64,000 nt of DNA. Origin: a virus. The stretch lies in the IMG/VR virus record IMGVR_UViG_3300024999_000055, positions 42,331-106,330 of that record. One strand, written 5' to 3'. How positions within the stretch are numbered: position 1 is the stretch's first letter; the number at the start of each line of letters is the position of its first letter. The notes beneath the pieces are model-generated. The model made no database searches and was not told the DNA's origin. It saw only the letters and a program-made list of their open reading frames with translations. Shown piece by piece: positions 21,242 to 51,496 of this stretch. Position numbers and translations under genes: made by a program.

Positions 21242-24200
21242 TTATTCTACTAATTGAACTCTATCACTTTGTAAAATCAATGTTCCGTCTTCTTTAACTT
21301 CTATTATTCTTTGAATACTATGTTGATAAATAGAATTTTTATATCTTTTTGGTTTGAATATATCTCCTCTTCTGAAACCAGTTACCAATAATAATTCTGA
21401 TCTTTTAAACCATCCGTTTTCTAAAATTATTTTTTTAGTTTTTCCTTTATCATCTATACCATTGTCTTTAGAAATTGTTTTATCATAAAAAGAAAATTGT
21501 CCTGAATAAAACTTCAAGGTTACAACACCTTCGGGAGTTAGGATAGTTACTGAATGTTTATTTTTATCTCTATCTAAAACAGTTCCTATAATTCTATCCA
21601 ATTGAAACTTGGGATATTGTAATCCTTTATATTTTGTAAACCCAATTACTATGGGTTCTTCAGGTAAAGAATAAAAATCGACTATTCCATATTTTTCTTT
21701 ATTAACATTTGCTAATTCATGTCCAGATTCTTTACTATAAAAACTCATACTTTCCATTTCCCATGAACTGATATTACCTTTCATATATTGATTTTTGATA
21801 TTTTGAAAAATAATATTAGTATATGTTTTTATACATTCCTCCGTAGTTATCCACTTATTTAATTGAACAACTTTATTTTTGTAAACAGATTCAAATGAAC
21901 CTTTACGTGATGTTCCCAATGCTACAAGCAAATATCCTTCATCATCATATTTATAATCTTTATCTTCCTGCATATCATTTGCAAAATGTTCCAAGAAAAA
22001 ATTATTTGCATGTTCTGTATCTTCATCATTATATATATCTTTTATTTTGTGCCAAGCAATTGTTTTTGATTGTTCATCTGTTATTTTCTTCATACTTATT
22101 AAATATTCTCTAAAATTATAAAATCTTAATTCGTCTTTTAGTTCAATTGGTATAATTCCTAACTCAGCAATTTTACTAATATCTTTAGAATTTAGTTTCG
22201 TTTTAGATGGATTTAATAATCGCAAATAATCCTCTAATATTTCTTCTCTTGGTTTATTTTCAATTTTATCAAATGATCCTGCTTTAATTAACATTATAGT
22301 CTGACCTTCTGCTACTAATGATCTCATTTGTGATTTACCAGTCTTTAATGTTGTTTCCTTTTTTATCAATACTAATCGTTCATGAAAATCTTTTAAATTT
22401 TTGTATGGTCTATTCTGCATAATGGTTTGTGCTGTTTCGTTATTAATTTTCATAATTCCTTTGAATCCAAAAATAATTTCATTATTTTGTTCATCAGGTA
22501 AAAAACCTTGTTCTGCTTTATTTATATATGGTAATGATACATTGATATCTTTAGATTGTAATTTACCTATTGCTTTTGCAATTTCTCCGTAATTTGTTGT
22601 TCTTTCTTTTGCTTCTATATCAGAATCTTCACATGTTTCTCTATCAACTGCACCTGATTCAACCATTAATACTGCTGTATTCCAATAAATAGGAGGATAA
22701 TAATAAACTAGATTTAATTGTTGAATGAGAATAATAGTATAGGCCACGGCATGTAAAATACTAAAACTGTACCCTAACTGCAATGCTATTTGTTCATTCC
22801 AAATATAATCCAATAAAATTTGCGGTGCATTTGCTTTTTTGCCCCATTCAAAGAACATTGTTTTAGCATCGTCAATTAATTTTTGTTGTTTTTTTGCTAC
22901 ACCTTTTCTTAATTTATTACTTTCTATTACTCCAAATCCTGCAATATTACTGTCCATAGTCAATAACATCATCCGTTCTTGACTTGAACATACTCCATTA
23001 TCTTGAAGTAAATGTCTTTCCATTATTTTAATTTGTTCTTTATTTAATCCAAACTTTTTCATATCCCTATACCATTCAGAAATATTATTTTTATATCTAA
23101 CAAATTTTTCTAATGGTTGCTCTCCACTATCTACCATTAATCTCATAACTGTATTTCCATTAGAAGCATCAATTAAATTTTGTGGTTGAATTAATTTAAT
23201 TGCTTGTTCACCTACACTTGATTCAAACTGAAATGCTGAAAGTATTTCTCCTTTACATAAAATAGCCCACATTTCTTTTGATTTGAAATCTATAACGTCT
23301 GGATGTAAATATTTATTATATGTTTTTCTTAAACTACCTTGCCATTCTATTTTATTATTTTTTACTAACATTTCCATAGTTAATTGAAGCATTGATTCTG
23401 TTTTAGTATTTAGAAAATCATATTTTAGATTTGATACTTGTTCTGAATCGTGTAATTCATAGGCAGATATTAATTCTCCACTTGGACTTCTCATTACTGA
23501 ATTATGTTTTGTGATTGGTTCATTTAAAATAATTACTCCACAAGCATGTGTTGATCTTTTATTAATTAATCCTTCAATACCTAATATAATATTTAATAAA
23601 TTTTTATCCGCATATTCACTGACCATATTTCTAAATTCAGTTACTTGTTTTCTTCCATTATCTAAATCTCCATAAAAACAATCATGAATACTCCATACTT
23701 TTCCTCTTTCTATAGGTACTAAAGAACTTAAATATAACGCAACATCATTGTTGATATGCAAACCTCTACAGCCAGTAAGGATTGCTGACTTAGAAGTTTC
23801 TGTTCCAAAGGTACATACTCTTATTGCATCTCCACCAATACTTTGATAATATTTTACTATTTTATCCATTACTACATCTTTTTTATGAGAACTGTAATCA
23901 ATATCAATATCAAAAATATCTGGTCTTTCTGCTGACATAAATCTCCAATGAGGCATTTCTACACCTTGTTCTAAAGGATTTACTTGAGTAATGCCCAATA
24001 AATAATTGATAATATATCCATTAGCACTACCACGACCTGGGCCGACGAATGATTCGGCTTCTTCCCAGATAATATCTATATTTTTTTGCATAGTATTTAA
24101 ATATGCTCCCATTGGTTGATGTTTAACTTTACTTGCTCCTGTAATTTCTTTACATTCAATATTAACTCTTTCTAATACATCGTCTAATTTTTCTTTTTTA

Positions 24201-25339
24201 ATTTCTCTTTCTTCTATTCCTTTAAATATTTGAGTAATCAAGAAAGTATGTTGATTCTCAATGTCTTCATAAAGTTCTTTTATATATGGATATTTGTCTA
24301 ATATTTTTTGATTAACTGAATACCACTCTGATTTTTTGGGTAATTTTCTCAAAGGAATAATAGATTCTGCAAAAAAATCATATCCTTTAACTTTATCAGT
24401 AATTTCTTTAGTGTTTAATATTGCTTTTTCAATATCCTCAATTTCTAAATAATCCATATTTTTAAATATTTCATCAACGGTGAAGAAATGAGTTGTACTA
24501 TAAAACATATCTACTTCACGATTACCATTGGAATCTTCTTCTGATGTTAAGAACGCTTTATGAATTTCTCTATCTTTAGATGTAAGATAATGTGCATCAG
24601 TTGTTACTATCCATTTAATCCCATATGCTTTTGCTATTTTAATAGCCATTATATTAAAATCTATTTGTTCCTGTTGAAGAGATGGTTGTAATTCAATATA
24701 AAAATCTTCACCAAATAAATCCAAACACCAATTTATAAAATAATCTATCTCGTCTTTTATTTGCTCTTGTTTTTCCTTATTTTCTTCTTGTAATAAATTT
24801 AATATTAAATTTGGCAGTCTACCTCCTAAACAGGCAGAAGACACGATTAAATGTCCTCTGCATTCATTAATAATCTCTTCTATATCACTATAAAATGTAG
24901 GAACTCTTTCTATACCTTTATAATTAAACATTCTTTTCCATGCTTTTGTAGATAATTTCCTAATTTGTTCATGACCTTCATTGTCTTTAGCCAACAAAAT
25001 AAAATGATAAAATTGAGTTTTTCCTTGTTCTTTCATTTCTTCATACATTGTTTCTTCATCAACTAAATAAATTTCATTTCCCAATATTGGTTTAAAATCT
25101 TTATGTATTTTTTCTTTAGATTTTAATTTTTCTACTGTATTTAAAAATTTTACATGAGAACTAAGACATTCATGATCTGTAATAGCCATTGCAAGATTAC
25201 CTAATTTATTTACATATGTAATCATATCCTCAATTTTATTAATTGAGTCCAAAATTCTTATATTTGAGTATTCGCTATGAACATGTAAATGTACAAATAT
25301 TTCATTTAATTTATTTAAATATTCTTGGGAGTAAGGCAA
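21242..25339 (-). CDS. dnaE: DNA polymerase III alpha subunit (SPbeta YorL-like)
   Basis: PHP motifs HLHVHSEYS and AITDHE, GPGRGSA, DIFDIDID, KYDFL, GYSFS..HA..Y. Confidence 0.96.
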   Translation of the reverse strand: MPYSQEYLNKLNEIFVHLHVHSEYSNIRILDSINKIEDMITYVNKLGNLAMAITDHECLSSHVKFLNTVEKLKSKEKIHKDFKPILGNEIYLVDEETMYEEMKEQGKTQFYHFILLAKDNEGHEQIRKLSTKAWKRMFNYKGIERVPTFYSDIEEIINECRGHLIVSSACLGGRLPNLILNLLQEENKEKQEQIKDEIDYFINWCLDLFGEDFYIELQPSLQQEQIDFNIMAIKIAKAYGIKWIVTTDAHYLTSKDREIHKAFLTSEEDSNGNREVDMFYSTTHFFTVDEIFKNMDYLEIEDIEKAILNTKEITDKVKGYDFFAESIIPLRKLPKKSEWYSVNQKILDKYPYIKELYEDIENQHTFLITQIFKGIEEREIKKEKLDDVLERVNIECKEITGASKVKHQPMGAYLNTMQKNIDIIWEEAESFVGPGRGSANGYIINYLLGITQVNPLEQGVEMPHWRFMSAERPDIFDIDIDYSSHKKDVVMDKIVKYYQSIGGDAIRVCTFGTETSKSAILTGCRGLHINNDVALYLSSLVPIERGKVWSIHDCFYGDLDNGRKQVTEFRNMVSEYADKNLLNIILGIEGLINKRSTHACGVIILNEPITKHNSVMRSPSGELISAYELHDSEQVSNLKYDFLNTKTESMLQLTMEMLVKNNKIEWQGSLRKTYNKYLHPDVIDFKSKEMWAILCKGEILSAFQFESSVGEQAIKLIQPQNLIDASNGNTVMRLMVDSGEQPLEKFVRYKNNISEWYRDMKKFGLNKEQIKIMERHLLQDNGVCSSQERMMLLTMDSNIAGFGVIESNKLRKGVAKKQQKLIDDAKTMFFEWGKKANAPQILLDYIWNEQIALQLGYSFSILHAVAYTIILIQQLNLVYYYPPIYWNTAVLMVESGAVDRETCEDSDIEAKERTTNYGEIAKAIGKLQSKDINVSLPYINKAEQGFLPDEQNNEIIFGFKGIMKINNETAQTIMQNRPYKNLKDFHERLVLIKKETTLKTGKSQMRSLVAEGQTIMLIKAGSFDKIENKPREEILEDYLRLLNPSKTKLNSKDISKIAELGIIPIELKDELRFYNFREYLISMKKITDEQSKTIAWHKIKDIYNDEDTEHANNFFLEHFANDMQEDKDYKYDDEGYLLVALGTSRKGSFESVYKNKVVQLNKWITTEECIKTYTNIIFQNIKNQYMKGNISSWEMESMSFYSKESGHELANVNKEKYGIVDFYSLPEEPIVIGFTKYKGLQYPKFQLDRIIGTVLDRDKNKHSVTILTPEGVVTLKFYSGQFSFYDKTISKDNGIDDKGKTKKIILENGWFKRSELLLVTGFRRGDIFKPKRYKNSIYQHSIQRIIEVKEDGTLILQSDRVQLVE

Positions 25340-32547: not shown

Positions 32548-33193
32548 ATGTAATATTAGTCTCCTTTAAATTTTAATTTTTATTTTTACAATCTATATAC
32601 TTATTTAATAACTAAACTATCAATCGACTAATTAAATCCTACTCTTCATCCTCTTTCTCATCATCTTCAACATATAATCTCAGACTTCCTTCTTGCATTT
32701 CAACTACATTCCATCTTTCATTATGTTTTCCACCATCAGGAATAAATTCAATTTCAACTTTCTCTGGTTTTGTACCTTTGAATCCAGTTACATTTCCTAC
32801 TTTTAATTCTCCGTTGTCTTCTGAAATAAATCTAATTTTGTTTCCTGTAGAAATGGTTTGCAATTCTCCTGTATTAATTTCTACTTCAATTGATTTGTAC
32901 GGAACTTTTTCAACATTGACCATAAATAAATCATTTCTCCTTTTCATTATAGATTTTATCTTATTTTACACTTTAAAATCTTAGAAGCCTAACTTTTTAC
33001 AAATCATGACCAAATATTCCTTTTATCATGATTTTCTGAAAATTGACATGCTCTAAACCATTATTTTATAGGGGTTTGTGATTTGGTATATTTTGTAAAT
33101 CACCCTTTCTTTGAAATATTTTCTTACCTTTTCGATTTTTTGATGAAATTTGAATCATTTTTGATATTTTTCTTAATTCCTTCCTACATCACT

Positions 33194-37066: not shown

Positions 37067-38506
37067 TTAATTAATCTCTAATGCATTAAATCTTTTTGCT
37101 ATCTCTTTAAAAGATGAATTATAAGCATTTATAAATCTTTCGTTATTATTTAAGTCATCTTCATTAAGATATTTTTTATTACGTCCATCATAATCATCAC
37201 AAACTACTGGTTCAATAACACTCCTATCATATGAATTTTGTATAGTAATAGTTTTAATCATTCTTGGTTCATTGTTTTCTTTCTCATATTCAAAAATTAG
37301 ATTTAAATTATTTGATAATTCTATAGGGAATATAGTATTATATCTTCTGTTCCAATACTTATTATATCTTCTATTATTTAATTCCTGTATATTCTTTTTA
37401 ATAATTTCTAAAATATACTTATATCTATCCATAATTTTATTATAATCCAATGTAAAATTTTCTTTTAACATTTTAGATTCTATATTTATAGGATTAATTT
37501 TTTTAAAATCATCTTGTATTATTAAAGTATTCTTCATTTCAAATATAATTTCATCAATATCCTTTCCCCAACATAATCCAACTACAGAAGTTATATCATC
37601 ATTAGTAATGTCAATATTTTCTGGTACAGCAAATAAAATAGGATCTAATCTGCAATATAAATATTCTATTTGTTTTTGTTGTTTAAGAATAGTATTTTGT
37701 AATTGTTGGTTTTGTGATTCTAAATTCATTTGTACTTGTCTATTTCTATATTTTTCATTTATGAATTCTGTTTCTAATTTATTTAATTTGTTTGAAATTG
37801 AATTTATTTTATCACTTAATGTTTTTATATTTATATCAAATGATTGTGCTAGTGATTTTAAATTTTCATCATTGGTTTTCGTTGCCATATATAAATTTTT
37901 CTGTGTAGGAATTATTAAATCTAATGTTTGAAATATATTTTCAAAGTAATCAGAATAATAAATACCTTTAATTACATCACTTTTAATTTGTTCCCATACA
38001 TTATAATAGTCTATAGGGCATAATAAATAACATTGATAATTGGTTGTTGTATCCTGTCTTAATAATTCATTAAAATATTTATACCCTTTCTTTAATTCAT
38101 ATGAATTATCCTCTATATCAAATAGTTTATCAATTTCAGTATATTCAACAGGAATTATTACCATATTAAAAATATTTGCAAGCGTTCTATATTCAGATAT
38201 TTTAACTTTGGGTAGATGATTTAATGCTGTTAAAATATCTGAATATTCTCCATCACAACTAGGAATCTTTTTTAATTTAGGAGGTAATCTTCTTTCCGTT
38301 ATCCAACTATTTTTTCTTATTTCTAAACTTTCATTTTTTAATTTATTATTTATTTTATTTTTTAATTCTGGTGTTTCTCCTAGATATTCTAATGATTGTT
38401 TATATAAATCAATCACTTTTCCAAAATTGTTTATAATGTCATTATCTTTTTCTAATAACTTAACAGGTTTATTTTCAAATTTAACTGCCTGTAATAAATT
38501 AGGCAT
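37067..38506 (-). CDS. Hypothetical protein with central coiled coil
   Basis: 479 aa ORF, heptad-like segment LSDKINSISNKLNKLE...LQNTILKQQKQ; own promoter. Confidence 0.75.
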   Translation of the reverse strand: MPNLLQAVKFENKPVKLLEKDNDIINNFGKVIDLYKQSLEYLGETPELKNKINNKLKNESLEIRKNSWITERRLPPKLKKIPSCDGEYSDILTALNHLPKVKISEYRTLANIFNMVIIPVEYTEIDKLFDIEDNSYELKKGYKYFNELLRQDTTTNYQCYLLCPIDYYNVWEQIKSDVIKGIYYSDYFENIFQTLDLIIPTQKNLYMATKTNDENLKSLAQSFDINIKTLSDKINSISNKLNKLETEFINEKYRNRQVQMNLESQNQQLQNTILKQQKQIEYLYCRLDPILFAVPENIDITNDDITSVVGLCWGKDIDEIIFEMKNTLIIQDDFKKINPINIESKMLKENFTLDYNKIMDRYKYILEIIKKNIQELNNRRYNKYWNRRYNTIFPIELSNNLNLIFEYEKENNEPRMIKTITIQNSYDRSVIEPVVCDDYDGRNKKYLNEDDLNNNERFINAYNSSFKEIAKRFNALEIN

Positions 38507-38536
38507 TATATCGCCCTCCTTTTAATTGTTGTATTT

Positions 38537-38565
38537 ATTTTAACATTTTGTTGTTAGTTTGTCAA
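38537..38565 (-). promoter_or_regulatory. sigma-A promoter (extended -10)
   Basis: TTGACA-17 nt-TAAAAT; shares ACAAAATGTTAAAATAAATA with the 10586 promoter. Confidence 0.8.
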
Positions 38566-38578
38566 CTATTATTTCTTA

Positions 38579-38652
38579 ACGAAATGCGTCTTTGGTAATG
38601 ATATTTATACTACATATAGTATATTGTAATAATTATATACTATATGTAGTAT
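38579..38652. repeat. Composite site: palindrome A + tandem NrdR-box-like pair
   Basis: ACGAAA-TGCGTC-TTTGGT, then ATACTACATATAGTAT (38607) and ATACTATATGTAGTAT (38637). Confidence 0.8.
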
Positions 38653-38991
38653 TTATTCTATAATTCATTCAATGTATTTCTAACTCTTCTTACCAACCAA
38701 AACCATTTTTCTGTTTCATATTTTTGTCTAAGCAAATCATCAATATCAAACCAATAACTTTTAAAATTACCACTATTCATAAATTTAATCATTGCTAAAT
38801 ATGCTTCACTCTCTGTTAATTCTTTGTTTTCAAATTGTTTATTAATAATTATTGCACTATTCATTACTATTGGTGCTTTTCTAGCAACAATTTTTACTTT
38901 ATCTCTTCTTGGCATAATAATCACCTCTTTAGGCAATTATATCACTTATTATTATATTTATCAATATATATTTTTCTCATATGTATAATAT

Positions 38992-39717
38992 TTATATTAC
39001 TATTTTATAATTCATTTTTAAATATAATTCATCTAATTCTTTTTTAAATCTATTTTCTAGATCCTGAACACTTTCTTTTGCTCTAAATTGATTCCAAGAC
39101 CTATTATCCATATCTTTAAGTTGTCCCCATAAATCAGGATAATATATGTATAAATTTCTTAATTCTCTTAAACTAGAGAAAGGACAACACCAACAACTTA
39201 CTCTATTAAATTTAGTATATAGTCCACCCCAATCAAAACCTTTATCATAACAATATTTTAATGCTTCCCCTTCTGTCATTTTCCAATCAATTAATGGATA
39301 TCTTTTAAATTGATTATCATCTACTCTATTTAATTCATCCATACCAATTCCTATATATTGAATATAACTACCATTTCCATATTTTTTATTTAAATATGAT
39401 TTTATTAAATCTCTTTTTAATACTGAAGTACACCATCTATTTTGACCTTGAGATGCCCATGCATATCCTTTTTGTCCTTTATTTTTACCTCTCGTTTTTT
39501 CATGATCAAACATCCAATAATCAAATGTCTTATTCTGAAGAATTGTAATTGGCATACTTGTATATTGTTTTATTTTTTCAATGTGTTCATAAAGTTGAGG
39601 AAACTCTTTTGTTGTATCTGCACAAACAATTTCGTCTATTCGCATATCTTTTTCCTTCATTAATAGGAAAAGTGCTGTTGAATCTTTCCCACCAGAAAAA
39701 CTAACTATATGGTTCAA
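38992..39717 (-). CDS. PAPS-reductase-family (PP-loop) protein
   Basis: VSFSGGKDS, DT..EFP, RWCT..LK, YPL.DW, RVSCWCCP. Confidence 0.9.
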   Translation of the reverse strand: MNHIVSFSGGKDSTALFLLMKEKDMRIDEIVCADTTKEFPQLYEHIEKIKQYTSMPITILQNKTFDYWMFDHEKTRGKNKGQKGYAWASQGQNRWCTSVLKRDLIKSYLNKKYGNGSYIQYIGIGMDELNRVDDNQFKRYPLIDWKMTEGEALKYCYDKGFDWGGLYTKFNRVSCWCCPFSSLRELRNLYIYYPDLWGQLKDMDNRSWNQFRAKESVQDLENRFKKELDELYLKMNYKIVI

Positions 39718-39754
39718 ATAAATTAATCCTCCATTTATTATATTTTAAGTTGTG

Positions 39755-39829
39755 ATAAATTTTATGTTTTGTTGTGATTTTTATACTACATATAGTATTC
39801 ACAATCTATATCTATATTATATGTAGTAT
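39755..39829. repeat. Composite site: palindrome A + tandem NrdR-box-like pair
   Basis: ATAAAT-TTTATG-TTTTGT, then boxes at 39783 and 39814 (31 bp apart). Confidence 0.8.
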
Positions 39830-39848
39830 CGTAAAAACATTAAACCTA

Positions 39849-40295
39849 CTAAATCATTGACTCAATTTCTTCAATTGCTAAAGATACTTGTCTTTCGCTA
39901 GAGAGAAGAACATGAAGTTTACTTTCAAGTAATTTCAATTTCCTATCTTCTTCTTCATATTTCAAAATCTCTAATTTTAATTTAATATCCGTAATCCATT
40001 GATCAAATACATAACCGGAAATAACATATTCTTCATCTAGTCCCAAATCAACGGCAGATAATAAATATGAATTTAATTTAACTAGTAAATGAGTTAAACC
40101 TTCTCTATTTAATACTTGTAAATTCAATCTTACTCCATCCAATTCAATACTACAATTTGTTAATGGTGAAAATTTCTTTTTAGTTTTTAAACCTTTCTTC
40201 TTCTCTGCAATCTGCGATTTTAACAACATAATCTTATCATCATTTGTCATTTGTTTTTCACTCATATTATTTTCCCTCCGAATATAATTTTCCAT
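39849..40295 (-). CDS. Hypothetical phage protein, adjacent partner of 40267..41361
   Basis: Long ORF overlapping the end of the upstream gene. Confidence 0.7.
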   Translation of the reverse strand: MENYIRRENNMSEKQMTNDDKIMLLKSQIAEKKKGLKTKKKFSPLTNCSIELDGVRLNLQVLNREGLTHLLVKLNSYLLSAVDLGLDEEYVISGYVFDQWITDIKLKLEILKYEEEDRKLKLLESKLHVLLSSERQVSLAIEEIESMI

Positions 40296-41361
40296 TTGTT
40301 AGATATGTGTTTTTATACATTGGTTTATATTTATTGTATATTTCCTCCAAAGTATACTCTACATATATTCTATTATTATTAAGAAAACCATAAGTGTTAC
40401 CATCTCTAAGATAATATTTACCTGTATTATTATACATTTTTTCTACAGAAATATATCTTTTATCTGTATCATAAAAATATGTCCCTCTATTTGTTGCCTT
40501 TTTACTAAATTCTTCAAAAGTATATTCTATATATTCATCCTTACTATCATCAACAGGAGAATAGTGTTCGTTACATTCAAGTTTATCAAATAATTCTGCG
40601 TAATTATCGACACATTCTGAAGATATAATTGATATAAATCTTTCTCCTAGACTTTTTAATGTTAATAAACTAATCCATTTACTATTATATTTATCATTAT
40701 CATCATACTTTCTGATAAAATAATGATGTTTGCCTTTGTTTATTTTATTCGTTACCCATTCATAATCATAACGACTGTTTGATTTATATATTCTTTCATT
40801 TTTAGTATCATAATAATCAAATCTACCCATATAAATATATTCTTCATCTGATTTAGTTTTATATGTACCACCTAATACTAAATCTTTTACTTTAACATAA
40901 TTCTTCTCATGTAATATTTCATTATATTGGATGATTTCTTTATAGTCTGGTGAATCTATAGGCAATAATAATAAATCCTTGCCTGAGTAAGCATAAAGAA
41001 ATTGCCCTTCTAACCCTTTTCCTTTAATACTGTTATTATTTTCCAAAATATATAATAAATTCTCTATTGATATTTCTATTTCAAAATTACGAGGATCGTA
41101 TACTCTGCAATATGCATGTCTATAATTCCAATTACTCTGATAATCCCCAACTTTCTTATTTAATACAAATCCTGATGTTGGCTCATTTACAAATTCTTGT
41201 GGTTCGATATTTTTATCGCGCCAGCCGTTCCAGGATTTTTCTTTACGCAATACATTTTTTTGATCATAATAAATTACATATGCTAATTTTTGAGTATATG
41301 TATCAGAACGATTTTGATAACCTACTTTAATAGTTTTGGGAATGAAGATATTTGTTTTTAT
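40267..41361 (-). CDS. Hypothetical phage protein, N-terminally extended to an ATA start
   Basis: AAGGAGG-8 nt-ATA AAA ACA AAT ATC TTC ATT CCC, open into the track ORF (xKTNIFIPKTIKVGYQNRSDTYTQKLAYVIYYD...RKEKSW). Confidence 0.7.
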   Translation of the reverse strand: MKTNIFIPKTIKVGYQNRSDTYTQKLAYVIYYDQKNVLRKEKSWNGWRDKNIEPQEFVNEPTSGFVLNKKVGDYQSNWNYRHAYCRVYDPRNFEIEISIENLLYILENNNSIKGKGLEGQFLYAYSGKDLLLLPIDSPDYKEIIQYNEILHEKNYVKVKDLVLGGTYKTKSDEEYIYMGRFDYYDTKNERIYKSNSRYDYEWVTNKINKGKHHYFIRKYDDNDKYNSKWISLLTLKSLGERFISIISSECVDNYAELFDKLECNEHYSPVDDSKDEYIEYTFEEFSKKATNRGTYFYDTDKRYISVEKMYNNTGKYYLRDGNTYGFLNNNRIYVEYTLEEIYNKYKPMYKNTYLTNGKLYSEGK

Positions 41362-41581
41362 AAGATTAACCTCCTTTCTTATTTTTAAGAATTAATTATT
41401 TCATCAAATTTTTCACCGCAATTACTACAATATTTATTCATTGAACTTTGATTACTACTATTACAATTAGTACAATAATACACAGTTATCTTTTTCCCTT
41501 CAAAAGTATCATAACAACATTCTTCTTTAATTAGTATTTTTGCCATAATATGATTGCTCCTTTATTAATTTATTTTATTTA

Positions 41582-42823
41582 TCATTCTCCTGCCTTATAA
41601 TTATAAATAGGTTTAATAATATCTAATATTTCAACAGTATTATTAATATTATTAATAATTTCTTCTATAGGTTTATAAGCCATAGGTGCTTCATCAAGCG
41701 TATGTGTACTTACAGAATTAGTAAAAATATCTTTCATAGATTCTTGATAATCTTCCATAGATATATTTTCTTTTGCCTTACTTCTACTCATTAATCTACC
41801 AGCACCATGAGGAGCAGAATAATTCCAATCTGCATTTCCTTTGCCTACAGCTAATATTGATCCATCACGCATATTAATAGGAATTAAAACTTTTTCACCT
41901 TCATAAGCAGAAATAGCACCTTTACGAATAATATTATCTTTAAAATTAATGTAGTTATGAATTGTTTCAAATATTTTAATATTATGATATTCTTTTGCAG
42001 TTATTTCTCCTATTTTTATAAGTTTTAATAAAATAATATCTGCTATGATATATCTATTTAAAGTAGCATATTCTTGGCAAAGTTTCATATCATGTAAATA
42101 TTTATCTCTCCATTCACCAGAAAGAAAACATAAATCTTTTGGATAAGATGGATGTAAATTATTATACCTTTTCTCTAATTCTTTTAATGCACTATGAATT
42201 TCATTTCTCTTTCCTTGTTGCTTATAATCAGCAATTAACTTTTCTTTTTGTTCATAAAAATCACTTTTGCCACTACATAAATCTATAGCAATGTTTTGAT
42301 AATATTCTGCTACTTGTTTTCCTAAACTTCTACTTCCTGAGTGAATTACAAGATATAAATTATCATTGCTATCTTTATTTACTTCAATAAAGTGATTTCC
42401 TCCACCAAGAGTACCTATACTTTTTTCTATTCTTTTTGTATCTTTAAGTGACCTATAGCAATGTAATTCTCTCATTTCATCAAAGTCAGATATTCTATTT
42501 TTATGTGTATTTCTTCCTAATGGGACAAATTCACGAATAATATCATCTAATTTTTGTAAATCAATATTTACTTTTCCTAATTCAAAAACTCCCATACCAC
42601 AACCGATATCTACCCCTACAATATTAGGAATTACTTTATCTCTTAAATCAGCAGTAAATCCTATTACACAGCCTGACCCATAATGACAATCTGGCATAAT
42701 ACGAATTTTACCACCTTCTACAAAAGGTTGATTACATAATTCAATTATCTGAGATATAGCAGTTTGTTCAATATTATCAGTAAAAACTTTTGCAGTATTG
42801 TATTTTCCTTTTAATTCTAACAA
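41582..42823 (-). CDS. rtcB: RtcB RNA ligase (3'-phosphate/5'-OH)
   Basis: MPDCH, VGVDIGCG, GTLGGGNHFIE, IHSGSR, HNY, HGAGR, DEAPMAYK; likely TTG start at 42823 after AAGGAGG. Confidence 0.95.
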   Translation of the reverse strand: MLELKGKYNTAKVFTDNIEQTAISQIIELCNQPFVEGGKIRIMPDCHYGSGCVIGFTADLRDKVIPNIVGVDIGCGMGVFELGKVNIDLQKLDDIIREFVPLGRNTHKNRISDFDEMRELHCYRSLKDTKRIEKSIGTLGGGNHFIEVNKDSNDNLYLVIHSGSRSLGKQVAEYYQNIAIDLCSGKSDFYEQKEKLIADYKQQGKRNEIHSALKELEKRYNNLHPSYPKDLCFLSGEWRDKYLHDMKLCQEYATLNRYIIADIILLKLIKIGEITAKEYHNIKIFETIHNYINFKDNIIRKGAISAYEGEKVLIPINMRDGSILAVGKGNADWNYSAPHGAGRLMSRSKAKENISMEDYQESMKDIFTNSVSTHTLDEAPMAYKPIEEIINNINNTVEILDIIKPIYNYKAGE

Positions 42824-42850
42824 GTTTTCAACCTCCTTTATCTTAATGAC

Positions 42851-42879
42851 ATTATACAATTATTTTTATATTGTGTCAA
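42851..42879 (-). promoter_or_regulatory. sigma-A promoter of rtcB
   Basis: TTGACA-17 nt-TATAAT. Confidence 0.85.
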
Positions 42880-43457
42880 TACCTAAAATCGTTACCAATC
42901 TAATTATTTGACATGATTTATTAATCCACTTTAATAAAATACTCAATACTAGATATTTCACTTCCTATAATTGCAACATTCTTTTCTGCACAATCTATTA
43001 ATTCAAAATGTGATAATTTAATTTCATTAGTTTGTTTAGGCATTATATTCATAATTAATTCCTCAAATTTAAGTTGTGTTTTAATCTTATATTCCTTACC
43101 GCTTTTCATGCAAATGATATAATCATACATAATATATTTTCTCCTTTTTTAACTATTTATAGAGTAATCTAACCTAACTTTTTTAACTTTATATTTATCC
43201 ATACTATCTCTTTCTATCCATTCTCTTACATATTCATTTGCTTCTGCTCTGGTATCAAAAGTAATTGCTTCACTAATTAACTTATTAATTTCATATTCAG
43301 TTTTAAAATCATTCATAGATTCAATTCTTGAGTAATATCCATCTTGGGTTATATTATATATAACATAATAAATATATGTTTCTGCTATTTTCATATATTA
43401 TCCTTTCTTAGATATTGTGTATGTATATTTAATATTATTTTTGAGTATAATCTTATT

Positions 43458-43545
43458 AGAGAAGTTGGTAGCAAGTTTAATATATAGTAATATTACCTCC
43501 TATGTTTTATTGCATATATTACACTACCAAATTCTCTTTTTGTTT
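43458..43545 (+). ncRNA. Putative hairpin sRNA with an anti-Shine-Dalgarno loop
   Basis: AGAGAAGTTGGTAG...TAATATAT / ATATATTA...CTACCAAATTCTCT stem, loop contains ACCTCCT, TATAAT at 43446, T tract after the stem. Confidence 0.45.
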
Positions 43546-43783
43546 ATCTAAACTTATTCTTCAATTCTTTCTTATACAAATCCAATACTTCTTCTTGATT
43601 ACTATCAATATAATCATAAATAATTTCTTCAATTTGAGATGAAAAATTAATTCGTTTAAGTTGATCTCTCATTTCATCTTTAATTAATGATTTAATTTCA
43701 TCATCTATGATAGAGTTTGCAATCTTATTAAATCTTTCAGCGATAGATTTTAAGATTATGTAATTTTCTGTTTGATTTTTTAT
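43544..43783 (-). CDS. Hypothetical helical protein with ATA start (absent from ORF track)
   Basis: AAGGAG-9 nt-ATA, 79 sense codons xKNQTENYIILKSIAERFNKIANSII...KNKFR*. Confidence 0.65.
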   Translation of the reverse strand: MKNQTENYIILKSIAERFNKIANSIIDDEIKSLIKDEMRDQLKRINFSSQIEEIIYDYIDSNQEEVLDLYKKELKNKFR

Positions 43784-44550
43784 GGTTTCATTCTCCTTTA
43801 TATTTATAATTTCTTCTCATATGAAATGGTCTACTATCTTCAGGATCATATGGATAACATTTTTCACATATAATTGGCGTATTACTTTCATTTACAATAC
43901 TTTTTATTAATTTATCTCCATATTTACATTCAGTACAATAAACATGTTCAAACATAATATTTATTTCTCCACATTTAATATCTTGCATATATTAAATCTC
44001 CTTTATATTTTAATAAAATGTGTATGGTTATGATTTTATTCTATTACTTCAATTTTAACTTTCTTACCATTTAATCTTCTGCATAACTCCCATATACTTA
44101 TTCCATCTTTTCTTCCTAATAAAAACCATTGCCCTTCCATGTCATTATAAATTTCACCCTCATATGTAATATCAAGATATGGAATTATTAATTCATCTTC
44201 CACATATTTAATAAATATTTCTTTAGAATAATCTAAACCCCAATATGGGTCATCATAGTCAATTTTATGTCCATTATTTAGTATGCCATGTATACCAAAT
44301 TGAATATTTTCACTAACCCATCCATTACAATTAGAAGGATAAATGGTAGCATAATATTCAGTAATAGTTATAGAATATTTTTCTCTAATATATTCTATTG
44401 CTTTAGTTAAATTAATATTGATTATATCTTGCTTATTCATACATTCAATTTCATGTTGCACACAATTATAATGATCTGTAAATTCTTTATCACATTTTTC
44501 ACATTTATAAATTTCTTTTGGCATAATAATTTAGTCTCCTTTTTATTAAT

Positions 44551-44652
44551 ATGAAAGCAAAATTTGGCTCAAATATTACCAAAGATTCCTTTGATCATGA
44601 TTTCTATACTATATGTAGTAGATATATGGTTTTGTATCACTACATATAGTAT
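44551..44652. repeat. Two palindrome-A sites + tandem NrdR-box-like pair
   Basis: ATGAAA-GCAAAA-TTTGGC; ACCAAA-GATTCC-TTTGAT-CATGATTT; boxes at 44606 and 44637. Confidence 0.8.
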
Positions 44653-44661
44653 ATTATTAAC

Positions 44662-46362
44662 TTATCCTACCTTATATATTTCTTTTTCATTAATAACTAT
44701 AAATTTACCACCTTCTCGCAATAATTTACTATCTTCATTTACAATATTACATTCAAAGTCTTTATAAATATTTTTTTCATAACTATAACCCTTAATACAT
44801 CCATCGCTTGGTTTAAATATTATATTATTATAGAAACATAAATTTCCTAAATCGTTAGTGTATTTTATTGCTTCACTTTCATATATTACATTATTTTTGT
44901 TTAAAACATAAGTATTAAATAATCCTTTTTGATTTTCAGTAATAAATAACCATCTCTTAGTTACTATATCATAATGCAAACCATAATTAATAATTTTATC
45001 AGTATTCATTAATGTGTAATTATATCCTGAAACATTAATGATTTTCATATTGTCATATATATTGCAAACAAAATATGTCTTATCATCAATAATTTCAAAA
45101 ATATTATTAAAAGAAACTTTACTAATATTTTTATTATAGTTTCCATTTTCATTAATGGTTAATTCAACCAAACTATTACTTAAATTAATATAATATACTT
45201 TATTATCAATTATTCTTACATCACTTTTATTAATCTTCTCAAATGTAAAAATATTATTTGATGTTTTAATCTGAATTTTATTATTAAATATTCCATAGAT
45301 AATACTTCCATCATTAGAAAAATAATATCTATTCTTCTTATTTTTCACCTTATATTTTGATTTAATATGAACGATATTATCATCATTATCTAAATATAAG
45401 TCTAAACTCAATATAGTTTTAATACTCTCATTTGTAAAATACAAAAATACTGGTATCCCATTACTACTTTCAATTTTAATAGGTTTATCTATTATCTTTG
45501 CTAAATTATTGCATATTGGACATTCCGTAAATTTACCATAGTAATATTCTTTATCTTTCTGACAATATTTTAAATTATTAAAATAGTCATCTAAACTATT
45601 ATCTATGATAAATCTTTTTTTATTTTCAAATACCTCTTTTAATTCTTCTAACATTTTAGGTGACATATAATTCCATTTATTTATTGTTTTAGGAATAGTA
45701 ACTTTATTATTATCAATAACTGATATACCTTTATTCATACGTTCTAATATATTTATATCTGGAGTAATTGTTCCTCCAAATGGATGTATCCTAGTTAAAG
45801 ATTTAAATATTAATATTCCAAAAGCATAATCATCTGTGTCAGAAGAAAAATTATTACTTGTTAATAACGGATCTTTAAATGAATCCATACATACTAAACC
45901 TTTGTATTTATCTATAGTCCAACTATCACAATCAATAAAATATATATTAAAATATTTATCAAATAAAATATTACAATCATTTAAGTCACTAATATATATA
46001 TTTTGATTGTGTAATTTTATTAGAGTATCTTTAATATTAACCAACATTTTAAGTATATCTTTTGATTTAATATTATTTGTTTGTAAATATTTCTTATTAG
46101 ATAGTCTTTTAAATTCTTCACCTTCAACTTTATCCATTAAATATCCTACAAACTTACCTTTATTATAAACAATATCATTAGGAATGATTACGTTATCAGG
46201 TAGTGTTTTAGACATTAATAACTTTACTTTTTCTAATTTTTCATTTTTATCAATATTACTTTTGTATATTTTAATAATCTGATTTTGATATTCATAAATT
46301 ATTCCTTCTCCACCTTCGGCTAGTGGATTTTGTTTTAAGAACTTATCATCTACCTGAATCAT
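44662..46362 (-). CDS. Ser/Thr protein kinase (TerY-P-type) with Zn knuckle and beta-rich C-terminal domain
   Basis: LAEGGEGIIY, IIKIY, ISDLNDCNIL, FIDCDS, HPFGG, CQKD...CPIC. Confidence 0.88.
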   Translation of the reverse strand: MIQVDDKFLKQNPLAEGGEGIIYEYQNQIIKIYKSNIDKNEKLEKVKLLMSKTLPDNVIIPNDIVYNKGKFVGYLMDKVEGEEFKRLSNKKYLQTNNIKSKDILKMLVNIKDTLIKLHNQNIYISDLNDCNILFDKYFNIYFIDCDSWTIDKYKGLVCMDSFKDPLLTSNNFSSDTDDYAFGILIFKSLTRIHPFGGTITPDINILERMNKGISVIDNNKVTIPKTINKWNYMSPKMLEELKEVFENKKRFIIDNSLDDYFNNLKYCQKDKEYYYGKFTECPICNNLAKIIDKPIKIESSNGIPVFLYFTNESIKTILSLDLYLDNDDNIVHIKSKYKVKNKKNRYYFSNDGSIIYGIFNNKIQIKTSNNIFTFEKINKSDVRIIDNKVYYINLSNSLVELTINENGNYNKNISKVSFNNIFEIIDDKTYFVCNIYDNMKIINVSGYNYTLMNTDKIINYGLHYDIVTKRWLFITENQKGLFNTYVLNKNNVIYESEAIKYTNDLGNLCFYNNIIFKPSDGCIKGYSYEKNIYKDFECNIVNEDSKLLREGGKFIVINEKEIYKVG

Positions 46363-46373
46363 TTAATCATCTC

Positions 46374-47018
46374 CTAAAATGCAATTGTAATATCATCTTT
46401 AAATAATTTATGTTCTCTATTTATTAATCTTTTAATAGCAAATTCTTTTCTGTTAATTAAACTTTTTTCAAATTCCTCTTTAAATTCACTATTTAAAATA
46501 TATTGCAAACCATCTGAAGCAATACCTATAGATTTATACTCGTCTTTTTTATAATATCTTAAATCAAAATTCACTCCATTTTTATAATCAGATAAATATT
46601 CTTCTGATATATAATTATAGGCATAATATTTAGGTTTATTATTTTGTTCTATTGTTTCATATTCTAAAATATCATCATATTTTTGTTTAATAATAATTCC
46701 GTCTCCACATGAATAAACAACAAAATGTTCTTCTAATTCTTCAACAAATAAAATAGTAAATAATAAGAAATCCTTAATATTATTTGGTTTATTATTTATA
46801 ATATTACTATTAAATATAACATTAAAAAAATCTTTTGTGCTAATAATAGGACATCCTAAATCTTCGTACATGTGACAAAACAATTTAACTCCCACTTCTG
46901 AATGTAACCCTTCCGAACAACCATCTACAACACATTTAATGTTATTATGTATAAATCCATAATCTTGATTATTTAAACCTTTTTCTAAATGACTATATCC
47001 TATTTTATTTATAAACAT
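46374..47018 (-). CDS. PP2C-family protein phosphatase
   Basis: GYSH...NQD, VVDGCS, CGDG, ASDGL, DDITI. Confidence 0.88.
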   Translation of the reverse strand: MFINKIGYSHLEKGLNNQDYGFIHNNIKCVVDGCSEGLHSEVGVKLFCHMYEDLGCPIISTKDFFNVIFNSNIINNKPNNIKDFLLFTILFVEELEEHFVVYSCGDGIIIKQKYDDILEYETIEQNNKPKYYAYNYISEEYLSDYKNGVNFDLRYYKKDEYKSIGIASDGLQYILNSEFKEEFEKSLINRKEFAIKRLINREHKLFKDDITIAF

Positions 47019-47036
47019 ATTATAATCTCCTTAATT

Positions 47037-47075
47037 TATACTAAGGTAAGAATTAATATATCTTACCTTAGTATA
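47037..47075. other. Perfect 15-bp inverted repeat between the vWA and PP2C genes
   Basis: TATACTAAGGTAAGA-9 nt-TCTTACCTTAGTATA. Confidence 0.85.
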
Positions 47076-47091
47076 TTTATGTTTTTATTTA

Positions 47092-47766
47092 TTACATTGT
47101 AAAGAAATCATCTGTTTTATTTACTACATTTTTAGAACTTTCAATAACAGATTTTGATAAACAATTAAACGCCTTTCTTAATTCTGATGCAGAACTCTTA
47201 ACATCAAGTATATTTTTAAAATCTAATTGTTTAGCAATACTTGTTGCTCCTCCACCAAAACTTATAAATGCAGTTGTAATTTCTTCATTGTTAAGTGTCT
47301 GGATACTTCTTTTAGCATCTGATATTACATTTCTTGAAGAAGTATTATCACCATCACTAAATATTGCAAATACTGCTTTAACCCTCATTCCTTGATTTTT
47401 TAGAAATGTTATATAGTTAGTTAATTTCTCACTACCTTCTACGATTACATCATATAATGCCGTCATGCCATTTGAGGAATAAGCAATATCAAAATCTGAT
47501 ACTTTTTTATATCCTCCAACATTAATATAATCTGCAAAATCTGCTCTTGCTACAAGGATTTCGTCAATTTCTTTTGAATCTAATAGTGCATTTTTAAATT
47601 CATTTAATGAAAATTTCATGTCAGATACAAATGGATACATTGAACCAGAACCATCAATACCTACAAAGATAAGATTTACACTTTCATTATCAATTTCTTC
47701 TACAGAAGTATTCTCAATTTCAATTTCGTCCATACCTAAAATATCTAATTCGTTTGTCATAGTCAT
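47092..47766 (-). CDS. vWA domain protein (TerY-like)
   Basis: MIDAS IDGSGSM, TALYD, IFSDG. Confidence 0.88.
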   Translation of the reverse strand: MTMTNELDILGMDEIEIENTSVEEIDNESVNLIFVGIDGSGSMYPFVSDMKFSLNEFKNALLDSKEIDEILVARADFADYINVGGYKKVSDFDIAYSSNGMTALYDVIVEGSEKLTNYITFLKNQGMRVKAVFAIFSDGDNTSSRNVISDAKRSIQTLNNEEITTAFISFGGGATSIAKQLDFKNILDVKSSASELRKAFNCLSKSVIESSKNVVNKTDDFFTM

Positions 47767-47812
47767 AATATATTCCTCCTATTATTTTTATTATTTTATA
47801 TTTTTATTATCT

Positions 47813-48721
47813 TTAAAGTTTTAAGTCTGTTGATTTAAGTATATTTACTTTATATTGCTTTTTAAAAGATTTAAAAGCATTTTCTGTTGTTTGTTCAAAA
47901 CTTGGAATAGAAGACATACAATCTTCAAGAATGTAAATTTTCTTAGTTACTTCAGGTTTATTTTGATAATACTCAAGAATTTGTTTAATTGATTCTAAAC
48001 AACAGTGTGATTTTGCCTCACCCAAAACAACAATCTTATCAAACTTTTCAATCTTATTAAGAAAATCAATATTGATATAGTTTTTTGTATCATATTCTGG
48101 CTTAATCACCCCGTACATCTCGCTCAAAGGGTCTTGACCTTTAACAAGTCTAAGTGTCATACTTTTCTTTGCTACTGAATGAAAATAAACCATATTAGCA
48201 AATTGATTTTCTAATGCACAACCACTTGTACCTTGTAGGCAATGATATGTCCATATAACTAAAACCTTTTTACCTTGTTTTTCTAAATTCTCCACATATT
48301 CTCTACTTGCTTTAGGATTAACAACAGGCATCCATTTTCCAGAATCTAAATCTGCCAATGTAATTGCTGTAAATGGAGTAGGATTATTGCCTTTAGCATC
48401 TACCCACCAGCAAGGATGGAAAATTTGGAATGGGTTATGTGTATCAATTGATACAGCAATTTGTGAGATTTTATCCATATTATCATAAATAAATCTTGTG
48501 GAATTTTCAACATCTTTAATTGCTCCAGGTACACCCAACGCTCCATTATCCATAAAATCTTGTTGAACATCAATTCCGATTACTAATACACTTTCTGAAT
48601 TTTTACTTGCAGGAATCATTTGCTCATTGTTTGCTAATACTAACAAGTCATTCATCTTGATTGGATTTTCTGTTGCCCCGATAGATGATACATTTACGAT
48701 TTCCTCAAATTTTGTTTTCAT
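47813..48721 (-). CDS. Nicotinamidase/isochorismatase-family cysteine hydrolase
   Basis: IDVQQDF, GALGVPGA, SIDTH, WTYHC, VKG, GEAKSHC (Asp-Lys-Cys triad and metal ligands). Confidence 0.88.
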   Translation of the reverse strand: MKTKFEEIVNVSSIGATENPIKMNDLLVLANNEQMIPASKNSESVLVIGIDVQQDFMDNGALGVPGAIKDVENSTRFIYDNMDKISQIAVSIDTHNPFQIFHPCWWVDAKGNNPTPFTAITLADLDSGKWMPVVNPKASREYVENLEKQGKKVLVIWTYHCLQGTSGCALENQFANMVYFHSVAKKSMTLRLVKGQDPLSEMYGVIKPEYDTKNYINIDFLNKIEKFDKIVVLGEAKSHCCLESIKQILEYYQNKPEVTKKIYILEDCMSSIPSFEQTTENAFKSFKKQYKVNILKSTDLKL

Positions 48722-48774
48722 GTTTTTAATCTCCTTTTTATTTATATTTTTTATTTGTTTTATTTATTGATGTT

Positions 48775-48803
48775 ATTCTACCATACTAGTTAGTGACTGT
48801 CAA
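48775..48803 (-). promoter_or_regulatory. sigma-A promoter of the four-gene operon
   Basis: TTGACA-17 nt-TAGAAT with extended TG. Confidence 0.8.
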
Positions 48804-48851
48804 CATATTTATTTTAATATTCTATTAATATTATACTTTATTTAGATCATG

Positions 48852-48925
48852 ACAAAACCAATATTTTATATTGAAATTTTCCTACATATAGTAGTATTTA
48901 ATTATTTAACCACTATATGTAGTAT
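48852..48925. repeat. Composite site: palindrome A + tandem NrdR-box-like pair
   Basis: ATCATG-ACAAAA-CCAATA-TTTTAT; boxes at 48879 and 48910. Confidence 0.8.
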
Positions 48926-49147: not shown

Positions 49148-49771
49148 TTATTCCTCCTCTTCATCCCATTCTTCTAACAATTCTATTGCTTCACTATAAC
49201 CTTTCCAGTTATCCACTCCTGCACATTTAAGTGCTTCTAAAAAATTACTATCTTTTAATAATTTATTATATTCTTCTAACGTAATATTTATAGTTTCATT
49301 ATTATATGTATTAAATTTCTCAATCAATTTAAAACATCTAGGTTCAATACTCTTATCAATATTAACACCAGGAACAAATGTTAATCCTTCGGCCACATTA
49401 TCTCCTTGTTGAGTAGAAACTTGAACTAAACAACCATTAGGTAAATTGCATACCTTTGTTGATTTCATCCATTTTTGATTTTTAGAACTTGCTTTACATA
49501 ATAATGCAAAAGTATCTCCGTCACCATAAACTTTAATATCATTAATTTTCTCTTTTGCTTGCTCAACGTTTTGAATGTTTAATGTTTTACTATTCATATT
49601 ATTTTCCTCCTCTTTATTATTTGATATTTTTCTTTTAAATTCTTTACATCCACCAGGAGTGCAATCACCTTTGCCACAATTATTATCATTTCTACAATAA
49701 CCCATACATAAATTATCATTAAATTGCTTTGCACAATCAAAACAACAATCTACTTTATTATATTTATTCAT
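49148..49771 (-). CDS. Three-part fusion protein (Cys-rich / WMKSTK domain / GVDNWxGY domain)
   Basis: Distinct segments; an internal RBS-like GAGGAGG before MNSKTL suggests a second start. Confidence 0.6.
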   Translation of the reverse strand: MNKYNKVDCCFDCAKQFNDNLCMGYCRNDNNCGKGDCTPGGCKEFKRKISNNKEEENNMNSKTLNIQNVEQAKEKINDIKVYGDGDTFALLCKASSKNQKWMKSTKVCNLPNGCLVQVSTQQGDNVAEGLTFVPGVNIDKSIEPRCFKLIEKFNTYNNETINITLEEYNKLLKDSNFLEALKCAGVDNWKGYSEAIELLEEWDEEEE

Positions 49772-51496
49772 ATGTATTCATTATCTCCTTTACATTTTTT
49801 TAAAATCTCAAATGCCATGCGTTCATCGCTCCACTTAACGCACCATTATCACCAAGCAATAAATATCCACAAAACATAATAAAAGTAGTAGTTACAATGT
49901 GACTTACCTCAATACTACCAATAACCTTTGTGTTTAATAATTCTTTCATAATAATCTCTCCTCTTTATTTTTATATTTTTCAAATATCATAATATATTTT
50001 ATTATCTTTAACTGCACCATTAACATCTTTTATTTCTTTAATATAATATCTACTATCACAATCATTCTTACTACTAAAAGTATGAATAATTGTTGTTATA
50101 TAATATTTATTATTATCTATATCTTTAACTTTTATCTTATAAGTATGTGCCCAATAATTATTATTACCATAAATATAAATGATAATATTAATTTTATAAT
50201 CAAAATTTTCACCTCCTATATGTTTTATTAATTTTAACTTTTTTATTAAAATCAGGATAATATACTTTTGCTAATTTCCTATGTTGTTTATTAACTATAT
50301 TAAAATCTTTTGTATTGAGTGAAAATTCTAATGTTTTATATTTATTTTTATTTAATGTAGATATTATAAATACTAATAGAAAATGAATTGCAAATATTGT
50401 TAACCACAATCTAAAAAGATTAATAATATCAATAAATAACATTCCTATAATTATAGCACAAATAAAATTTAAAAAACAAAATAAATTAATTTCTAAATAA
50501 TTATTATGAATAAATTTAACTCTATCATTATAATTAAGATATAAATAACTTAACCAAAATTCTAGTAATATCATTGAATTATTCCTTTGTATTAAGTTTA
50601 ATATCGTCACGAAACATTCAATTGATTAAATTTGCACCGTCCAAATATTTTCATCATTATCTTTTAAGCATTCTGCATCTAATTTATTTTCATTATTAAG
50701 TTGTAATAATTTATCAATTAATTTCATAATCTTATTCTCCTTTCTCTTCTCTACATAAACTTTCATGAATACTACTTGCAATACTAATATACTCTGCCAT
50801 TTCATGTAATTCTTCTCTTAATTCTAATTGATCTGCTAATTCTTCGGCAAATCTTTTATATTCTTGCCATGTAATATTAGAAATAAAATTTTTAACTACT
50901 TCTTTATCATGTTCTAAATCAACTGCCATTTTTACAATGAATTCTTTAAATTCATCAATTGCAATATTAATATTTTCTTCTCTTTGTTCTTTAGACATCT
51001 CACTAAATTTCATAGTGTTTATCCTTTCTATTTCAATATTAAAGTTAGATATTTCTATATATTGTGGTCGTGTATATAACCACAATATATAGAATACATA
51101 TACTTTTATGTATAATTTTACTTTTCCTTCTTACTCTTACTCCCTACACTATTTGTAACATTACTAATTGATTTTTTCATATTATCAATATCAGTAAGTA
51201 AAAATACCATAGCCTGCTCTTTGGTAAATCCAATTTCAACATAAGCGTCGAATTGATTCTTTCTTACTTTTGCTTTAGCAGTAAAATATTCAGTATTATT
51301 TGAAAAGTCCTTGTATACTTCTAATAATTCTTGACCAACCATATAAACTAATGGTTTAAATTGATCTACCTGCTCTTTAATCATCCCCTTTAATTCATCT
51401 GGATTCTCCAATAAATTGTATAATAATTTGTTCATATTAACATTCTCCTTTTCGTTTTTATATTTTTATTTAATAGCAATACATTATAACGTATCA

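Follow-up and report, generated by a model that had tools for sequence, protein, structure and literature searches.

A repeated, putatively regulatory element is described here in a phage genome represented by IMG/VR record IMGVR_UViG_3300024999_000055. The window is the 64,000-nucleotide stretch from positions 42,331 to 106,330 of that 106-kb record, which is its last 64 kb, and coordinates are window positions. NrdR is a bacterial repressor that senses DNA-precursor levels. The window carries pairs of 16-bp boxes that satisfy every sequence test applied for NrdR operators, namely matrix score, critical bases and linker length, and each of the five canonical pairs lies at a nearly constant distance from a second palindrome, A. 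The reading that we favour, and to which we give about an even chance, is that an SPbeta-like temperate phage has taken up operators of the host NrdR, each joined to an A site for a second protein, and that the two form a regulatory cassette gating accessory genes. The boxes would then be candidate host-NrdR operators, by which the phage probably ties the cassette genes to the deoxynucleoside triphosphate (dNTP) state of the cell.

The 106-kb contig has a GC content of 25%, is estimated to be 57% complete and holds nearly all of its plausible genes on the minus strand. The window has five canonical box pairs and one pair with a shorter linker; no strand is assigned to the pairs or to A. The boxes of pair 1 are at 13813-13828 and 13844-13859, with a 15-bp linker and a spacing of 31 bp from start to start. 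Pair 2 (38607-38652) has a 14-bp linker and a 30-bp spacing, and 15-bp linkers are present in pair 3 (39783-39829), pair 4 (44606-44652), which lies directly past the stop codon of a kinase gene, and pair 5 (48879-48925). The sixth pair (51052-51095) consists of strong NrdR-type boxes with a 12-bp linker, a 28-bp spacing and no A. A preliminary description of this DNA had listed pairs 2 to 5, with start-to-start distances of 30, 31, 31 and 31 bp, and the looser pair that starts at 51052 and 51080. A rescan recovered all of these, but the count of four A-linked pairs was too low, as the canonical pair 13813+13844 (31 bp) had been overlooked. When up to two mismatches were allowed, the 16-mer motif gave 9 matches and 0.72 were expected, and in a scan of the whole contig only the sites listed above stand out. 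The linkers of the five canonical pairs are unrelated to each other in sequence.

The resemblance to NrdR operators was scored with a matrix that is independent of the phage. The nrdD genes were taken from 81 genomes of the order that contains a Terrisporobacter genome, and de novo motif discovery on their upstream regions, with 29 bacterial genomes behind the matrix, gave the NrdR box, paired with a second one 30-32 bp off. In a scan of the 106-kb contig the phage boxes took ranks 1-8 and 10, at 14-19 bits. Pairs 1 to 5 score 15.0, 32.5, 22.6, 34.0 and 32.9 bits, respectively, and the 12-bp-linker pair at 51052 scores 30.5 bits. Under the same matrix the host nrdD pairs score 25-37 bits, and the top pair score in simulated contigs (n=200) was 18.3 bits. 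Scoring with an NrdR matrix had been proposed as a check in the preliminary description, and the boxes pass it, with three pairs at 32-34 bits.

The critical bases and the linkers point the same way. A mutagenesis study has shown that C4, A6, A8, T9, T11 and G13 matter for NrdR binding (PMC13584703). All six bases are present in 11 of the 12 boxes, including both boxes of pair 1 and both of pair 2; the exception is box 39814 of pair 3, which is without C4. The low matrix score of pair 1 is caused only by a G at position 7, given the small matrix, and operators of S. coelicolor also have G at this position (PMC13584703). Four pairs have both boxes complete at a spacing of 30-33 bp, and 0.027 were expected. 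The usual NrdR operator has a linker of 15-16 bp of unconserved sequence; linkers of 14-17 bp bind tightly and those of 13 bp or less do not repress (PMC12051234). By these limits the linkers of the five canonical pairs are acceptable and the 12-bp linker at 51052 is too short.

Palindrome A has arms of 6-14 bp and a 6-bp centre. Its cores lie at 13785-13802, 38579-38596, 39755-39772 and 44578-44595 for pairs 1 to 4, with the first box beginning 11 bp beyond, and at 48852-48869 for pair 5, with the box beginning 10 bp beyond. The core is therefore 10 or 11 bp from the first box at 5/5 canonical pairs, on the gene-proximal side each time. The same gaps (11, 11, 11 and 10 bp) and constant side had been reported before for pairs 2 to 5. 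There are about 9-15 copies of A, found upstream of -35 elements or ribosome-binding sites, and the 18-bp degenerate A pattern by itself is marginally enriched (18 observed, 11.4 expected). The significance lies in the fixed adjacency of A to the boxes and not in the frequency of the pattern; a rough estimate from the observed density of A puts the chance of adjacency at 5/5 pairs in the order of 1e-16. Between A and the start codon or promoter there are anywhere from 20 to 130 nt, and the distance from box to A is constant. An NrdR that works with an A-binding protein fits best because of this difference.

As RNA, the box-linked copies of A have folding energies of 0 to -5.4 kcal/mol with z no better than -1.1, and the A stem is not formed at all in three of the five. 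A is read as a DNA site because these copies do not fold, and an RNA hairpin was rejected for them on the basis of the folding energies. The best A copy, a 30-bp near-perfect palindrome at 32995-33040 that has no NrdR boxes, can form a stable hairpin (-10.7 kcal/mol, z -3.2), contrary to the box-linked copies. A third NrdR box was also considered for A and rejected, since the C/G frame is missing and the phase is off by about 4 bp. LexA, cre, CodY and Rex boxes, compared with A and with the third motif described below, fit poorly and were dropped.

The same cassette geometry is found in other phages. The close relative G004 (143 kb, 26% GC) has seven pairs: in 5/7 an A-type palindrome lies 9-10 bp away, in one it is 20 bp away (one extra turn), and one pair has none. 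The variant seen in pair 1 is conserved in G004 at 115545, and an orthologue of pair 3 is found in G004 at 128514 and is also carried by L092. A second, larger group of phages (about 150 kb, 32% GC) has a different palindrome, or third motif, which consists of a GAAA-type arm, six bases and a TTTC-type arm. Public collections were searched with a pattern of two exact 12-nt cores, 18-20 nt apart. Among the matches listed, the third motif stands at one fixed offset from the proximal box in 69 of 208 unique phage flanks, with 52 distinct linkers, and at one base off this offset in 2 more of the 208; the arrangement occurs in 1 of 236 bacterial flanks. That single listed bacterial locus with a full phage-type cassette, a pair plus the offset third motif, is L191 (Konateibacter massiliensis, at about 6450-6550). 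It is probably a prophage and gives a clue to a Lachnospiraceae host for the 32%-GC group. The proposed check on conservation of the box-to-A spacing in related phages thus came out positively, in G004 and, as geometry, in the 32%-GC group. Three in-phase NrdR-type boxes, 31 bp apart, were observed in some phages of 150-180 kb (G003 23299-23372 and 24352-24426; G007 123404-123477).

At least 118 loci in viral contigs have the exact box pattern. The box motif is constant across viral contigs of 24 to 55% GC, and the third motif varies by lineage. Constant boxes with a partner motif that changes between lineages are therefore the pattern expected of a universal host protein that acts with lineage-specific phage proteins. 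Among the matches listed, none of the 115 ORFs (open reading frames) that flank viral boxes is a reductase, and a reductase occurs anywhere in the fetched stretch at 8 of 118 viral loci; the preliminary description was correct in placing NrdR-type operators far from nrd genes. The genes near the viral boxes, again among the matches listed, encode gp5.9-like RecBCD inhibitors, NAD ligases, Tad4, a methylase and many unknowns. In the phages of L033, L103 and L116 the cassette is followed by the gene for an NAD-dependent DNA ligase and, about 1.4 kb on, by a reductase gene; NrdR control may there reach the reductase through the operon.

In bacteria, the matches listed come from records of many phyla, and the 107 neighbouring ORFs comprise 24 NRDD genes, 16 class I/II large-subunit genes and others. 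NrdR is encoded in 5/5 of the low-GC genomes with such boxes that were tested. The reductase promoters of low-GC Peptostreptococcaceae type have AT-flanked, mirrored boxes as in the phage. Several copies of longer inverted repeats, whose arms start with NrdR-type boxes and run into the linker, are present in some bacteria: Anaerobacillus (L139, L172, L200, L155, L226), a metagenome-assembled genome (MAG) of Halanaerobiales (L133, L150, L165) and a Peptostreptococcales MAG (L160, L176, L177, L182). These long repeats are mostly away from reductase genes and may represent a family of repeat elements, or cassettes of prophages. Neither the present contig nor 44 other box-bearing phage records yielded an NrdR gene, the only matches in them being to the ATP-cones of reductases, and the N-terminal zinc ribbon of NrdR had no match in the 45 phage records. 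A phage-encoded NrdR was rejected on this basis, and the host protein is therefore the likely binder.

The cassettes have a common layout. The pairs are intergenic, although pair 1 is overlapped by a listed, putative 115-amino-acid ORF at 13816-14163 on the minus strand; it would read through the pair, and either it is not a gene or these boxes are inside coding sequence. At pairs 2-5 the distal box is 5-19 nt past the stop codon of the preceding gene, and the order on the minus strand is stop codon, distal box, proximal box, a gap of 10-11 bp and A, in a cassette of about 80 bp. A is then followed by a ribosome-binding site, except at pairs 2 and 5, where a strong sigma-A-type promoter follows. 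The promoter of the 479-amino-acid gene at pair 2 (38537-38565, minus strand; 11/12 matches, with TG) is downstream of A, and the boxes of this pair are centred at about -85 and -115 from the estimated transcription start. The promoter of the nicotinamidase-like/PP2C/kinase operon at pair 5 (48775-48803, minus strand) is 49 nt downstream of A. The earlier observation that no box overlaps a promoter holds for consensus sigma-A promoters, as the strong ones are downstream of A. A region containing a strong sigma-A-type promoter is present in two copies, 10578-10623 and 38529-38574, which are 85% identical over 46 nt and head a glutaredoxin-like/nrdD block and the 479-amino-acid gene, respectively, which suggests that a promoter module has been reused.

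The genes downstream of the cassettes, all on the minus strand, are those for a 479-amino-acid protein with no Pfam family (37067-38506, cassette 2), a PAPS-reductase-like protein of 241 amino acids (38992-39717, cassette 3), a 162-amino-acid protein with no family (44036-44524, cassette 4) and, as the first gene after cassette 5, a 302-amino-acid protein with a weak isochorismatase-type match (47813-48721). The cassettes do not have the character of reductase promoters, as the genes downstream are unknown or accessory. The class III reductase gene of the phage itself, nrdD (7963-9891, minus strand), was used as a negative control. A plain promoter is found upstream of it and no NrdR boxes, as had been said earlier of the nrdD operon.

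The cassettes also coincide with sites of gene replacement. At two cassettes the upstream gene is orthologous to that in G004 (89% and 48% identity), and no downstream gene at the compared cassettes is common to the two phages. Among the 32%-GC phages, a single conserved gene precedes the same cassette, beyond which at least six different genes are found, and similarity stops right past the third motif. The cassette therefore marks junctions with a swapped downstream gene, as do the breakpoints at PeSLs, the composite regulatory cassettes (promoter and stem-loop) of T4-like phages, whose homology mediates the shuffling of genes (PMC4122927). In both cases a short, conserved motif of regulatory type borders variable accessory genes, with the upstream gene conserved, the downstream gene replaced and the breakpoint at the end of the motif (PMC4122927, PMC2839356). 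The sequence, phage family and host are different from those of PeSLs, and the present cassettes have operators of a host-repressor type and an A that forms no stable stem-loop.

The phage is uncultured and SPbeta-like. A megablast search of 16 kb against cultured phages gave no match, and a protein search identified SPbeta as the nearest cultured relative. The DNA polymerase aligns with SPbeta YorL along 99% of its length at 41% identity, the genes for the helicase, a primase-like protein, RecJ and the polymerase are in SPbeta order, and the contig encodes a 543-amino-acid large serine recombinase of the SprA type. The master repressor of SPbeta, MrpR (YopR), has a tyrosine-recombinase fold but no recombinase activity, and it binds SPBRE, an element repeated between genes, in ten promoter regions (PMC10516654). 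SPBRE sites in SPbeta are located just upstream of the -35 element, over the -10 element, or between the promoter and the ribosome-binding site. The likeness concerns A and not the boxes. It includes the type of phage (YorL-type polymerase, synteny of the replication module and a large serine integrase), the presence of about ten copies of an intergenic element, the placement of A upstream of -35 or ahead of the ribosome-binding site, and the arm-spacer-arm shape of A, which is that expected of a target of a recombinase-fold repressor; the outline of SPBRE is loosely similar to the cassette operator. By this analogy, which has moderate support, the A-binding protein is most likely the MrpR-type recombinase-fold repressor of the lineage. 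The assignment is put forward as an inference because A has no sequence match to SPBRE and SPbeta is without NrdR pairs. G004 encodes a YopR homologue (at 96.4 kb; 24% identity, E 4.6e-12) after a gene of yopQ size, and by synteny this region would fall just past the end of the present contig. A general late promoter of SPbeta (YonO-type) was considered for the element and rejected, as SPbeta has no such pairs over 10-134 kb.

It is proposed that, when dATP is plentiful, a tetramer of NrdR loaded with ATP/dATP would occupy the box pair on the same face of the DNA as the protein bound to A, and would help to silence the downstream gene by blocking either initiation within the cassette or read-through. 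Phage replication would drain the dNTPs, NrdR would leave and the downstream genes would be released. That NrdR binds, that it acts with the protein at A, and that the regulation runs in this direction are all predictions from the DNA sequence. Lytic infection is known to derepress the NrdR regulon strongly in S. pneumoniae (PMC6755750). The suggestion in the preliminary description that host NrdR serves as an accessory factor at A is retained as far as joint action with the A-binding protein is concerned, given the fixed geometry; its framing as Xer-type recombination is not, as no tyrosine recombinase was found in the contig.

Several observations weigh against this proposal. That the host encodes an NrdR is an assumption. 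A differs in sequence from the SPBRE copies read in SPbeta, no MrpR/YopR homologue was found in the 57%-complete contig, the 32%-GC phages have no YopR match and SPbeta has no NrdR pairs over 10-134 kb. No convincing -35/-10 combination was found within the cassettes on either strand, by eye or by scan, and in the scan only pair 2 yields a decent match, on the plus strand. At pairs 2 and 5 the boxes are about 85-150 bp upstream of the sole strong sigma-A promoters, and simple steric repression is disfavoured because of this distance. Because no convincing promoter was found in the cassette and the strong promoters are about 85-150 bp away, the boxes may act by halting read-through transcription as a roadblock, or by helping the A-binding repressor to load cooperatively, and not by simple occlusion. 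A more specific version of the proposal concerns SPbeta-like phages of anaerobic Bacillota: NrdR would be a physical co-repressor of an MrpR-type repressor, the two bound one helical turn apart on the same face of the DNA, and the dATP/ATP ratio would decide whether some of the early or accessory genes stay silent, and might also influence how stable lysogeny is. This version is tentative and rather unlikely. If true, it would add a dNTP-sensing arm to the prophage switch.

The pairs could instead be decoys without function in cis, which titrate scarce host NrdR as phage genomes multiply, derepress the host ribonucleotide reductase genes and raise the dNTPs. The sites do score like host operators, there are five to seven pairs per genome, no strong promoter is overlapped at pairs 2 and 5, the nrdD of the phage escapes NrdR, and host NrdR regulons rise in lytic infection (PMC6755750). 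Decoys could work at any distance and in either orientation relative to another motif or a gene start, but A lies 10-11 bp away at 5/5 pairs, the third motif keeps one offset in 69 flanks from other phages among the matches listed, and some complete phages have one pair only. We regard this as an improbable account of the cassettes, and titration of NrdR by replicating phage DNA as a plausible side effect. A similarly low probability is given to the boxes being operators of a phage-encoded protein with NrdR-like specificity, such as the repressor of the lineage itself. Such a protein would suit a cassette whose third motif is phage-specific, the loose similarity in outline to the SPbeta operator, and the lack of a reductase link (0/115 flanking ORFs and 8/118 loci among the matches listed). 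It does not explain why the six NrdR-critical positions and the NrdR linker length are all found, or why the box motif is constant from 24 to 55% GC and the third motif depends on the lineage; neither an NrdR homologue nor the N-terminal zinc ribbon was found in the 45 phage records.

The two remaining alternatives give A or the boxes a role in exchange or in structure. ArgR and PepA are architectural accessory factors at cer, and NrdR could have such a role if A were a dif/lox-type core that exchanges gene cassettes. The shape of A, with 6-14-bp arms and a 6-bp centre, is compatible with an Xer-type site, and the cassette sits exactly where the downstream gene differs and the upstream gene is conserved between related phages. 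The Xer-like recombination at A that had been suggested earlier was not borne out: the 106-kb contig yielded no tyrosine recombinase, the sole recombinase found is the large serine integrase of the SPbeta SprA type, and SPBRE is the better comparison. Homologous recombination at conserved motifs explains the swapping, as in T4-type PeSLs (PMC4122927), and MrpR is an example of a recombinase fold that acts as a pure repressor (PMC10516654). We consider recombination at A very unlikely. The least probable alternative is that each box pair folds into a long RNA or DNA structure (hairpin or cruciform), for example as a signal for processing or termination, with an incidental likeness to NrdR boxes. 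The central asymmetry is mirrored in 4/5 pairs, which makes each of these a 16-bp inverted repeat, and multi-copy versions in some bacterial genomes have repeats that run on into the linker. Pair 1 is complementary at only 12/16 positions, one G004 pair is a direct repeat, and the sequence is conserved with no compensatory changes seen. There is no T-run past the pairs and only one terminator-like site in 15.6 kb. Mirrored boxes are also present at a bona fide host reductase promoter (L204), and they suit a tetramer with two-fold symmetry.

Other genes of the region were noted. A 207-amino-acid protein encoded at 49148-49771 (minus strand) has a C-terminus that matches the T7 gp5.9 family of RecBCD inhibitors (E 9e-17), and at four other phage loci a member of this family is encoded by the gene right after an NrdR-type cassette. 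Accessory cargo of the early region, all on the minus strand, includes a TnpB with OrfB_IS605 and Cas12f-like TNB domains (16553-17767), an RtcB RNA ligase (41582-42859) and a Ser/Thr kinase with a PP2C phosphatase (44662-47018).

Compared with bacterial NrdR operators (PMC12051234, PMC13584703), the phage sites have the same two partially palindromic 16-bp boxes with C4, A6, A8, T9, T11 and G13, an unconserved linker of 14-15 bp and scores equal to those of host nrdD operators. They differ in that the phage cassettes are not at reductase genes and the phage nrdD has no boxes, in that the canonical pairs are fused to a phage-specific palindrome, and in that two sites are far upstream of a recognisable promoter. 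In the literature searched, NrdR is described only as a repressor of ribonucleotide reductase operons and phage sites are not mentioned. Other phages place a site for a host sensor-repressor beside a site for a phage factor and so read a host signal. In Bacillus phage GIL01 the host LexA acts together with the phage protein gp7, and at the rstA promoter of CTX-phi host LexA acts with the phage protein RstR. The candidate sensor here is NrdR, which responds to dATP/ATP, and not LexA, which responds to DNA damage, and the targets are accessory genes at several loci.

The analogy with SPBRE and MrpR for the partner palindrome is a new proposal. The MrpR study hypothesised that an additional factor might be needed for specific SPBRE binding in vivo (PMC10516654), and NrdR may be this factor. 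NrdR proteins bind heterologous operators (PMC13584703), and because of this the claim is directly testable with existing reagents. If NrdR binds the phage sites, a near-universal dNTP sensor would time or gate genes other than those for reductases in many large phages, and its operator would be a portable module that travels with accessory genes and genes of a counter-defence type.

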